Below are positions 23,863 to 56,631 of a stretch of DNA of 64,000 bases, piece after piece (the first letter of the stretch is position 1; each line of letters opens with the position of its first letter). Both the position numbers and the translations under genes were made by a program. The DNA comes from Eledone cirrhosa (lineage: Eukaryota). The notes below the pieces were generated by a model, which saw only the letters and a program-made list of their open reading frames with translations, was not told the origin of the DNA and searched no databases. The stretch covers positions 311,240,001-311,304,000 of the forward strand of contig OZ024742.1 in assembly GCA_964016885.1 (NCBI GenBank), read 5' to 3'.

Positions 23863-23897
<35 letters not shown>

Positions 23898-23993
23898 GTA
23901 GGAGGTGAGTTTTATTGTAGCACAATAAAGCAATGCAAATATCGGATAAGTAGCACTCAACAGTTTATAGGACTGGAGTATATAAATCTCCGT

Positions 23994-24060
23994 CTGACGA
24001 GAACGCAAATATCATCCCATGATGATTGATATTTGTTTTTGAAATGCGCATAATAAAATA
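23994..24060 (+). ncRNA. Hammerhead ribozyme family A, 5' strand of stem I missing (probably inactive)
   Basis: CTGACGA-stem II-GAAA-tgcgca-TA-ataaaata is intact but is preceded by ctccgt instead of tattttat. Confidence 0.65.
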
Positions 24061-24076
24061 CATGGAACTCTTTTGA

Positions 24077-24149
<73 letters not shown>

Positions 24150-24177
24150 ATCAAAAGATGGTTAAAAGAGTTCCATG

Positions 24178-24248
24178 TATTTTATTATGCGCATTTCAAA
24201 AACAAATATCATCATGCAATAACATTTGCGTTTTCGTCAGATAAAATA
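24178..24248 (-). ncRNA. Minimal type I hammerhead ribozyme (family A)
   Basis: Minus strand reads tattttat-CTGACGA-aaacgcaaatgttattgcatgatgatatttgttttt-GAAA-tgcgca-TA-ataaaata. Confidence 0.8.
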
Positions 24249-24418
24249 GGGAGACATGATATGAAGGTTAAAACACACTTGTGAATAGTGCAGTTTTAAA
24301 TCAACTCTTTTAACCATCTTTTGATCTTATATATTATTTATACTCCAGTCCTACAAACTGTAGAGTGCTACTTATCCGATATCTGCATTGCTTTATTGTA
24401 CTACAATAAAACTCACCT

Positions 24419-24463
<45 letters not shown>

Positions 24464-24718
24464 GGAAAAAATGAAACGAAATTTCATTTCCCACTCTTAG
24501 TACGGCTGTTACTTAAATATAAGTATGTACACGTACATACAAATATGTATACAGACGTACAGTAGTATGTATATATACATACATGCACACATATATATGT
24601 ACGTATGGATTCACCGAACATTTATTATAATGCTCGGGGTGTTTGTAAACAAACATTCCGTATTAAGCCGTAGTGTCTAGCAACCATCGTTGCTCGTTTG
24701 TTCAACACTGACAAAGGA

Positions 24719-24761
24719 ATGCTGTACTAGTTTCAAGCTTATTAGCTATCGTCAGCAACGT
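24719..24761 (-). ncRNA. Minimal type I hammerhead ribozyme (family B, inverted copy)
   Basis: Reverse complement of the 25163-25205 motif with one substitution in stem I. Confidence 0.78.
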
Positions 24762-25162
24762 ATACCTTCCTGCCAGATTGTTGAACGTATATACTTACCT
24801 TATGCATATTAACGGCTGAGTAGCCCAATTTGCATATCGAGTGGGTTAATCGGCCGGGTGCACCGAAAACGATAAACGGAAAAAATGAAACGAAATTTCA
24901 TTTCCCACTCTTAGTACGGCTGTTACTTAAATATAAGTATGTACACAGTAGTATGAATATATATATATACATACATGCACACATATATATGTACGTATGG
25001 ATTCACCGAACATTTATTATAATGCTCGGTGTGTTTGTTTTTTTCCGTTTATCGTTTTCGGTGCACCCGGCCGATTAACCCACTCGATATGCAAATTGGG
25101 CTACTCAGCCGTTAATATGCATAAGGTAATTATATACGTTCAACAATCTGGCAGGAAGGTAT

Positions 25163-25205
25163 ACGTTGCTGACGATAGCTAATAAGCTTGAAACTAGTAC
25201 AGCGT
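25163..25205 (+). ncRNA. Minimal type I hammerhead ribozyme (family B)
   Basis: acgttg-CTGACGA-tagctaataagctt-GAAA-ctag-TA-cagcgt: 6-bp stem I, AGCT/AGCT stem II (T-T at its base), palindromic stem III ACTAGT, GUA cleavage triplet. Confidence 0.8.
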
Positions 25206-25423
25206 TCCTTTGTCAGTGTTGAACAAACGAGCAACGATGGTTGCTAGACACTACGGCTTAATACGGGATGTTTGTTTACAAACACACCAAGCATTATAAT
25301 AAATGTTCGGTGAATCCATACGTACATATATATATGTGTGCATGTATGTATATATATATATACATACTACTGTACATATATGTATGTACGTGTACATACT
25401 TATATATATATATATATATATAT

Positions 25424-25983
25424 AGAAGTGGTTACACAACAGTTAGTTCACCATACCGAGAACAATTGTTTCACCTCAGCTCGTAATCAAATATTTGTTT
25501 TGCTTCTTCACATCTGTGTATGTGTGTACACACACACACAGAGATGTGAAGAAGCAAAACATAAATATTTGATTTTTGTGATTCTCAATAAATCAGCTCA
25601 ATAAGGAACTTTTTTTATTTCATCTAGAGTACATATTTTTCTTAGAAATATGTGTTCTGTAAATATACAATATATTGTGTTTTCTTACGGATATATGGTT
25701 CTCTCTCTCTCTCATATATCCGTAAGAAAACATAATATATTGTATATTTACAGCACATATTTCTAAGAAAAATATGTACTCTAGATGAAATAAAAAAAAG
25801 TTCCCTATTGAGCTGATTTATTGAGAATCACAAAAATCAAATATTTATGTTTTGCTTCTTCACATCTCTGTGTGTGTGTGTACACATACACAGATGTGAA
25901 GAAGCAAAACAAATATTTGATTACGAGCTGAGGTGAAACAATTGTTCTCGGTATGGTGAACTAACTATTGTGTAACCACTTCT
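25424..25983. repeat. Fold-back palindrome with about 273-bp arms
   Basis: Arms 25424-25697 and 25713-25983 are near-perfect reverse complements with a (CT)n spacer and (TA)n on both flanks. Confidence 0.95.
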
Positions 25984-26299
25984 ATATATATATAGAGAGA
26001 GAGAGCATTCGCCTTGCAATCGAAAGGTTGTGAGTTCAATTCTCCTCAGACCGGGTGATGTGTTGTTTCCTTGAGCAAGACACTTTATTTCACATTGCTC
26101 CAGTTTACTCAGCTGTAGAAATGAGATGATAGGGACCCCAGTCCCTATCATTCCACTGCAAAGTAGTCGTGGAGGTGTCACGGTAAATAAGCACCCAGCA
26201 CTCACTGTAAATGAGGTTGGTGTTAGGAAGGGCATCCAACTGTAGAAATCAAGCCAGAATCAGTTCCCGTCCCACCCTTGCAAGCAGGGAAGATGATGA

Positions 26300-53495: not shown

Positions 53496-54824
53496 ATGGT
53501 GAGACAAATGCAAGAGAGGTTCTTAGAGAAGAATAAGCCACTATACTTAGCCTTTGTTGACCTAGAGAAGGCCTTTGATAGGGTACCCCGATCTGTCATC
53601 TGGTGGTCCCTAAGGAAGCTAGGTGTTGAAGAATGGCTTGTGAGGACAGTGCAAACTTTGTACAGAGGTACTCAGTAAAGTCAGGGTAGGAATGGAGTTT
53701 AGTGAGGAATTCCAGATACAAGTAGGAGTACATCAGGGTTCGGTCCTCAGCCCGCTCTTGTTCATTATAGTCCTCCAAGCCATAACAGAGGAGTTTAAGA
53801 CTGGCTGTCCATGGGAACTTCTCTATGCTGACGATCTGGCTCTTATAGCAGAATCAATAGAGGAGCTAGAGAATAAATTCCGGCTATGGAAACAGCAGTT
53901 GGAAGCAAGAGGACTGACAGTAAATCCTTCTAAGACAAAAGTGTTGATGAGTAGAAAAGAGGACAAAACCCTGATTCCGTCAGGGAAATGGCCATGTTCG
54001 ATATGCAGAAAAGGAACTGGCATAAATTCTATAAAATGCACACAATGCAGGTCCTGGGTACACAAGAGATGTAGCGGGATAGCAGGCAAACTAACAGGTA
54101 GGGAGAAATATGTATGCAGTAGATGTACAGGGAAATTAGACAGTAGAAGTCGCACTGATAGACACATTTTTCAAATGCGAGAGGGCGCTATAGAAGTGGT
54201 GGATAGCTTCCGGTACCTAGGAGATCAGATTAGCATGGGAGGAGGGTGTTCCGAGGCCATAGTATCTAGAATAAGGACGGGTTGGAAGAAGTTTAGGGAG
54301 CTGCTTCCTCTGTTGACGAAGAAGGGTTTCTCCCTGCGTACGAAAGGCCGGTTGTATGATGCCTGTGTGAGGAGTGCGATGCTGCATGGTAGTGAGACAT
54401 GGGCAGCAACCGCAGAGGATATGCGACGGCTGGAGAGAAATGAGGCAAGCATGCTCCGTTGGATGTGCAGTGTAAATGTGCGTGAACGACCCAGCATAAA
54501 TGTGTTGAGAGAGAAACTGTGTCTGAGAGGGATAGAATGTAGTGTACGGGAGAGGAGACTGAGGTGGTATGGACATGTGATGCACATGGAGGATGACCGA
54601 TGGGTGAAGAAGTGCCAGGAAATGCCAGTTGAAGGAAGATGTGGTAGAGGTAGACCACGAAAAACATGGGCGGAGGTGGTGAGAACAGACCTCAGATCAT
54701 TGAAGCTCACGGTGGAGATGACGAGGGACCGTGACGAGTGGAGAGATGCTGTGCTGAATAAGACCCATCCCACCCTTGCAAGCAGGGAAAAGCAGACGTA
54801 AAATGATGATGATGATGATGATGA
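53496..54824 (+). mobile_element. 5'-truncated RTE-clade LINE (RT C-terminal half, one frameshift near 53675, (GAT)n tail)
   Basis: FVDLEKAFDRVP, GVHQGSVLSPLLF, LLYADD, FRYLG, RRLRWYGHV and GRGRPRKTW motifs. Ends taaaa(tga)n. Confidence 0.95.
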
Positions 54825-56581: not shown

Positions 56582-56631
56582 GAACAGTACTGATGAAGTG
56601 TAATACCCAGAAACATTAGTGTCTGCAGTTC
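56582..56631 (+). ncRNA. Candidate decayed hammerhead ribozyme
   Basis: gaacagta-CTGATGA-agtgtaataccca-GAAA-cattagtg-TC-tgcagttc: stem I pairs 7 of 8, GUC triplet, weak stem II. Confidence 0.5.

Follow-up and report, generated by a model that had tools for sequence, protein, structure and literature searches.

The window analysed here, a stretch of 64,000 nt from the genome of Eledone cirrhosa, contains a short repeat that carries a predicted hammerhead ribozyme, runs on beyond its own length and then reverses its orientation, all within a TA microsatellite. How does a sequence with no credible open reading frame come to be inserted in this form, by which enzyme, and from what kind of RNA? 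Our results suggest that it belongs to a high-copy non-coding hammerhead retrozyme family, very probably inserted in trans by the reverse transcriptase-endonuclease of Penelope-like elements (PLEs).

We number the unit u1-u414 in the sense of the ribozyme, as the reverse complement of 24462-24875. The minus-strand arm (24462-25038, 577 nt) consists of u230-414 followed by u1-414, a 1.4-unit tandem of the 414-nt repeat. An earlier note on this DNA had described such a 1.4-mer, with a unit starting at 24462 and restarting at 24876, and this description is accurate. The complete unit (u1 at 24875, u414 at 24462) has a 3' end that we call long. The unit upstream of it (24876-25038, 163 nt) is truncated at its 5' end, lacks the ribozyme and carries a 22-nt deletion in its low-complexity part, and the two are joined head-to-tail exactly. 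The strand switch, previously placed near 25037, lies at 25038/25039, where the two arms meet head-to-head (5' to 5'). The plus-strand arm (25039 to about 25405) comprises u405-414 and then u1 to about u362, i.e., 0.9 unit, and its 3' end is of the type that we call short. The inverted copy that had been reported is thus present, with 95% identity to the first unit, but it is not full, since the final 52 nt of the unit are missing from its outer end. This tail, u363-414 (24462-24513, minus strand), lies between the two preferred 3' ends of the family and contains a 7-bp hairpin and the 3' strands of both long-range helices of the RNA fold. The insertion is bordered on both outer sides by strandless (TA)n remnants of the target, the left one at 24421-24461 (21 TA repeats span 24421-24462) and the right one, which the plus-strand arm reaches at about 25405, at 25402-25424.

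The longest ATG-initiated frame of the doubled unit has only 47 codons in the sense and 51 in the antisense orientation, in agreement with the lack of a credible frame noted before. There is a single ribozyme per strand, and therefore no unit-length monomer could be released from the locus itself. Judging from the sequence, a read-through transcript would fold into a 349-bp hairpin.

The ribozyme and its family

Each full unit has one hammerhead core, as had been stated, and one is found on each strand of the locus. The first type I hammerhead (24719-24761, minus strand, core 24755-24725) has a C.A mismatch in stem I, and the second is at 25163-25205 (plus strand, core 25169-25199). The predicted cuts follow GUA at 24725 (minus) and 25199 (plus). 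The motif comprises a 6-bp stem I that continues into a longer hairpin, CUGACGA, a stem II of U.U plus 4 bp, GAAA, and a stem III (ACUAGU) in which a palindromic tetraloop caps a single pair. The T.T opposition at the base of stem II was known from both copies at the locus and recurs in 224 of 233 distinct genomic contexts. The proposal that the ACTAGT of stem III allows dimeric cleavage fits the resemblance of this ribozyme to hammerheads reported to act as dimers (PMC7229834), and its predicted activity is low in the monomer and higher in the dimer.

Rfam scans returned no hammerhead family among 104 and 2 matches, which were spurious microRNA-like hairpins only, so the identification rests on motif, fold and covariation. 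The fold of the unit is more stable than that of shuffled sequences (z = -5.5), in part because of a TA-rich hairpin. Across 16 natural units, 96.5% of the cells of a 73-pair structure are paired and seven pairs show double changes, including a U.G to G.U change in stem I and three pairs in two long-range helices (u32-37/u380-385 and u204-210/u369-375). Base pairs are thus kept across subfamilies, with compensatory changes in the stems. The number of cells with double changes exceeds that of all 500 shuffles, while the number of covarying pairs is matched by 104 of the 500, the rows being related to each other. The double changes stem from three to four related subfamilies and hence represent few independent events.

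The 35-nt ribozyme core has 5,522 exact matches in this 3.0-Gb genome against none for its reversed control, which puts the repeat far above chance. Motifs just downstream and upstream of the core have 13,094 and 9,368 matches, respectively, again with none for the reversed controls, and the closest genomic copies are 98-99% identical to the one in the window. The earlier view of a retrozyme-like, multi-copy, non-coding repeat is supported. Its length of 414 nt holds for the locus but not for the family, whose young copies mostly have about 416-424 nt, which makes the locus a short variant. Two main subfamilies occur in proportions of about 55:45, alongside an older variant, typified by locus L107. 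A sister retrozyme family (L106:7278-9000, L117-L135), with 837 candidates and a length of about 470-510 nt, is approximately 72-85% identical; it contains compensatory changes and an expanded (TA)n stretch in its interior.

Units occur as monomers, as multimers and in long arrays, and they abut head-to-tail at an exact junction with no internal region between them. Arrays with higher-order periods were found on C28 (45.63-45.67 Mb), C11 (3.29 Mb) and C1 (51.77 Mb), the array loci examined being L091-L093, L095 and L197. Two arrays (L196, L198) have an A-B-A-B arrangement in which alternate units show no differences, and must therefore have grown at the DNA level after insertion. A spacing of 2.53 kb between matches was considered as a possible coding unit and rejected, as it is a six-unit higher-order repeat of tandem arrays. 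Likewise, a high disagreement within insertions at u82 and u156 proved an artefact of queries that carried, and selected, those alleles; in the positional sample, neither site shows a common variant. The C11 array opens with an inverted 5' arm, as an ordinary insertion does. The family illustrates how retrozyme insertions seed satellite arrays.

Non-LTR retrozymes are a known class, of which this family is a new member. The class was defined by Cervera & de la Pena 2020 (PMC7229834), who showed circular RNAs and dimeric cleavage, and described retrozymes of 350-390 nt in mussels and Rtz331/353 in axolotl. As in the animals described there, the repeat is non-coding and tandem, measures a few hundred bases, has a single type I hammerhead in each unit, is present in thousands of copies, and occurs both dispersed and in arrays. 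Its units of about 420 nt fall within the 150-450 nt that characterise the class. It shares with Amex1 a stem III of one pair and a palindromic tetraloop, and with Amex2 the basal U.U of stem II; unlike either as described, the present ribozyme unites both weak features. The strict (TA)n targeting, the two fixed 3' ends and the head-to-head arms also set it apart from animal retrozymes in the accounts consulted, which in turn include RNA and cleavage data, whereas the present family is known from DNA. The open literature that we searched contained neither this sequence family nor any cephalopod retrozyme and no counts of short/long pairing, and the available text of an octopus repeat annotation (PMC13282606) mentions neither retrozymes nor ribozymes; the family may sit in Repbase or in supplementary tables.

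Insertion ends and the mobilising enzyme

The analysis of ends covers 140 complete insertions, drawn from three samples. Of these, 52 were chosen by similarity, 54 by their position on C1 with the core as query, and 34 by position via the motif downstream of the cut. Long arrays, duplicate loci, matches confined to low-complexity sequence and insertions touching the edge of a locus were dropped beforehand. The 3' ends cluster at two sites some 52 nt apart (u362 and u414), and in simple insertions they fall within u352-366 or u404-414 in 23 of 28, 21 of 26 and 9 of 13 cases in the three samples. TA repeats follow 157 of the 173 canonical 3' ends, and both sites carry 4-6 nt of TA microhomology. 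Target-site duplications cannot be delimited, because the ends merge into (TA)n. The 5' ends are scattered throughout the unit and are somewhat more frequent at u1 and within its TA-rich part. The circular permutation of start points that had been expected is therefore seen in the scattered 5' truncation points, but not at the 3' ends, from which reverse transcription begins and which lie at two fixed sites. The truncation points cluster mildly where the ribozyme core starts (u116-125, 9/80 in the positional sample), which may reflect that the core was required in sampling.

Half of the insertions are head-to-head (71/140; 27, 23 and 21 in the three samples). When both outer ends are canonical, 48 pairs combine a short and a long end, two are long/long and none is short/short. 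Mixed pairs prevail in every sample (19 vs 2, 17 vs 0 and 12 vs 0), and once two duplicated loci are set aside the pairing still holds for 46 of 48 (binomial p about 4e-12). The exceptions to the rule are the two long/long pairs and another 20 head-to-head insertions with at least one non-canonical end (6, 6 and 8 across samples, a tally that allows for one insertion classed as other/other in two of them). The end statistics suggest asymmetric two-site priming by a dimer.

This pattern is that of PLEs. In vitro, a PLE protein modelled as a dimer cuts and extends both strands of AT-rich DNA, and two internal start sites on the RNA define a "tail" (Frangieh et al. 2024, PMC11167929). PLEs with an endonuclease (EN+; Neptune, Nematis) are described as having 5' truncations, partial tandems, inverted 5' copies and a (TA)n bias, with the tail often at a single end (Craig et al. 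2021, PMC8557442). The retrozyme shares all these traits, including the two reverse-transcription start sites and the tail at one end only. It differs from these elements in having no open reading frame and a tail of 52 nt rather than 30-40 nt, and from the PLE studied in vitro, for which initiation without homology was reported (PMC11167929), in the TA microhomology at both of its start sites. The inverted copy is an ordinary Penelope head-to-head structure, not a sign of circularity.

The same rule applies to the coding PLEs of this genome. Among 50 inspected loci, out of about 10,600 GIY-YIG candidates, we identified four young coding families with reverse transcriptase and GIY-YIG domains (in the protein of family C only the former is above the Pfam threshold) and with a Cys-x4-Cys-x2-Cys linker of the type described for Neptune and Nematis (PMC8557442). 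The three families that were mapped have two (TA)n-linked 3' ends, 62, 44 and 35 nt apart, so that the 52-nt tail of the retrozyme falls within their range of 35-62 nt. Short ends pair with long ones in all eight of their head-to-head insertions, read by eye (L076, L101, L102, L105, L107, L108, L109 and L115, with L102 and L115 counted on arm ends alone, not on arm continuity). The ribozyme of family D resembles that of the retrozyme in its U.U and its palindromic stem III, and the proteins of family A are about 97% identical, indicating recent activity. Long open PLE frames are present at L096 (938 aa), L097 (844 aa) and L098 (1096 aa). Further, unrelated hammerhead motifs, of at least three families, lie near PLE loci L070, L098, L102, L103, L108 and L109.

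Retrozyme ends thus obey the same two-site, one-tail rule as coding PLEs in the same genome, which ties them to that enzyme. Mobilisation of retrozymes had previously rested on co-occurrence and sequence similarity. LINE or PLE enzymes were proposed to copy the circles (PMC7229834), and vertebrate retrozymes were recently presented as non-autonomous elements derived from PLEs (Li, Clavereau & Pollet 2026, bioRxiv 10.64898/2026.07.22.740005), with cleavage in one of nine dimers tested. We agree with the latter on PLE-dependent mobilisation and on the co-occurrence of PLEs in the genome. Their case, as set out in the available text, builds on co-distribution and pLTR homology in vertebrates, whereas ours builds on the mechanics of insertion ends in an invertebrate-type genome, where no homologous pLTR was found among the 50 GIY-YIG loci inspected. 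When the unit was aligned to the 3' regions of three PLE families, 23, 105 and 56 of 200 shuffles scored as high, so that a resemblance between its long end and the short end of family A (23/200) is not significant. Relatives of the unit near GIY-YIG frames (L085, L106, L107) were also discarded as a link to a partner, because they are separate (TA)n insertions. Hence we infer the PLE partner from the mechanism.

Could the unit simply be the pseudo-LTR, or 3' end, of a coding PLE, and its copies truncated versions of that element? It does have every insertion feature of PLE ends, and a neighbouring hammerhead family in the window is itself the 3' end of a longer element. Yet units join head-to-tail at exact junctions with nothing intervening, and a search of 1.2-2 kb of upstream sequence at 105 retrozyme loci, using 20 PLE frames as queries, found a PLE protein match at four loci, none positioned as a frame upstream of the unit, and no frame with reverse transcriptase and GIY-YIG continuous with it (0/105). 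The unit is thus neither single-copy, given its 5,522 cores, nor the fixed terminal repeat of a coding element, and we regard the pseudo-LTR explanation as very unlikely. We give next to no credence to an origin at the DNA level, with the inverted arm as a fold-back or replication-slippage palindrome in (TA)n and MITE-like or satellite spread: arrays did grow after insertion in L196 and L198, and 5' ends of arms coincide in 10 of 48 mixed pairs, but the short-end arm extends past the long-end arm in 25 of 48 and so is no copy of it, while fixed 3' ends, random 5' truncation and a conserved RNA fold indicate retroposition. This explanation is largely refuted for dispersal and holds for later array expansion. 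Among sources of the inverted arms, fold-back is rejected for most of them, being excluded in those 25 pairs, and so is classical twin priming, which fits just 7 of 48.

Insertion in trans by a PLE enzyme might then proceed as follows. Tandem copies would be transcribed into an RNA that folds and is bound by a PLE protein of the Neptune/Nematis type, probably as a dimer. The enzyme would introduce a nick in either strand of a (TA)n tract, and from each nick cDNA synthesis would be primed at one of a pair of internal UA-rich sites, located at about u359-362 and at u414 plus UUAU. The cDNA would pass over unit junctions and over the ribozyme site, whether uncut or re-ligated, before stopping at a random point, and two cDNAs would be joined 5' to 5', or a single arm would be joined to the target. 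The template would be a continuous RNA, either a circle made by the ribozyme, for which we see roughly even chances, or an uncleaved multimer, which we rate a little below that. Some insertions would later expand into satellite arrays through duplication at the DNA level. The near-strict pairing of short and long ends constrains how the inverted repeats of Penelope elements form, a step whose mechanism the literature leaves undefined (PMC8557442).

The template of reverse transcription

The earlier note proposed that a longer-than-unit copy derives from a circular or multimeric RNA, and our data support a continuous template. The cleavage site is read through in 160 of the 163 segments that contain u158-180. 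The starts of the other three lie in u146-158, two of them at u150 in a duplicated locus and one at u157; no segment begins at u152. Read-through in nearly all segments leads us to reject the cleaved linear monomer as the usual template. Together with copies longer than one unit, it implies a template that is continuous, i.e., a circle or an uncleaved multimer.

Within an insertion, subfamily-diagnostic sites disagree in 55 of 790 comparisons between units and in 25 of 302 between opposite arms (7-8%), against 48% between insertions. Both arms must therefore come from one molecule or from one homogeneous source. Rare variants are mostly unshared within insertions (571, against 42 shared), showing that most differences arose after insertion, and thus they do not separate circles from multimers.

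The first possibility, about evenly balanced in our judgement, is that dimeric hammerhead cleavage yields a monomer that is ligated into a circle and copied as a rolling circle by both primers simultaneously. Half of the arms (40/80) are longer than 430 nt, beyond one unit, and 11 exceed 850 nt, although a few were lengthened after insertion. Arms and units of an insertion are of the same subfamily and have some rare variants in common. Of the 48 mixed pairs, 30 have a cleavage site in each of the two arms that was copied across, and only seven have arms that abut, as twin priming on a linear RNA predicts. Mussel and axolotl retrozymes are reported to form abundant circles (PMC7229834), and the covariation in stem I implies that selection acts on the ribozyme. 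Against circles, the 571 unshared variants leave little private signal by which to assess the identity of units, at least one arm (L181) combines two subfamilies, the conserved fold closes near the unit junction, and the circular form is about 6 kcal/mol less stable than the linear one.

The second possibility, to which we give slightly less than even chances, is that the template is an uncleaved linear transcript of several units from tandem source copies, the ribozyme acting occasionally or at another step. In vitro, uncleaved RNA is reported as the dominant PLE substrate, ribozyme cleavage is dispensable and insertion persists when the ribozyme is mutated (PMC11167929). With a stem III of a single base pair, the monomer is predicted to cleave weakly, long arrays are available as possible sources, and the L181 chimera is consistent with a mixed multimer. 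Nevertheless, present arrays diverge internally by 6.3%, against 3.3-3.5% among the units within dispersed insertions, and dispersed copies do not commonly carry a variant that is frequent in the C28 array. The arms seldom abut as they should on one linear template, so the multimer would require two molecules or strand displacement.

A more specific form of copying from a circle is speculative and, in our view, rather doubtful. A PLE dimer may place one subunit at each of the two sites on one circular retrozyme RNA, where opposite strands of (TA)n would prime two cDNAs that roll around the circle and displace each other. Such double rolling-circle synthesis would explain both the short and long ends of head-to-head insertions and the arms longer than the unit, and the conserved long-range helices of the tail would position both start sites. 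The 420-nt RNA would then be a minimal substrate for the integration step of Penelope elements.

Neighbouring elements in the window

A second, unrelated type I hammerhead lies at 24172-24256 on the minus strand, with a degraded copy at 23995-24055 on the plus strand. It has an 8-bp stem I, a long stem II and a palindromic stem III, and its fold alone is no better than that of shuffled sequences. Its family is very young: all 40 copies scored, out of 451 candidates, are 100% identical. The hammerhead is the 3' end of a longer element, of which 0.6-1 kb upstream is common to 5 of 15 loci; no PLE protein was found within 1.5 kb of it. Two apparent head-to-head insertions of this element (23896-24076 and 24148-24420, as read from the sequence) lie in the same (TA)n tract, and each has one short and one long end. 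At another locus (L256:1651-1700) the 3' end of this element passes directly into the tail of family A, a coding PLE, which may reflect kinship or a template switch.

Directly to the right of the retrozyme locus, 25413-25994 is a (TA)n-flanked inverted-repeat insertion with nested hairpins. Farther along the window, a 385-aa frame (53644-54801, plus strand) matches reverse transcriptase and a PHD finger and is probably a LINE fragment, and a motif scan gave two further candidates of the form CUGAUGA...GAAA, at 56590-56623 (plus) and 59435-59397 (minus).
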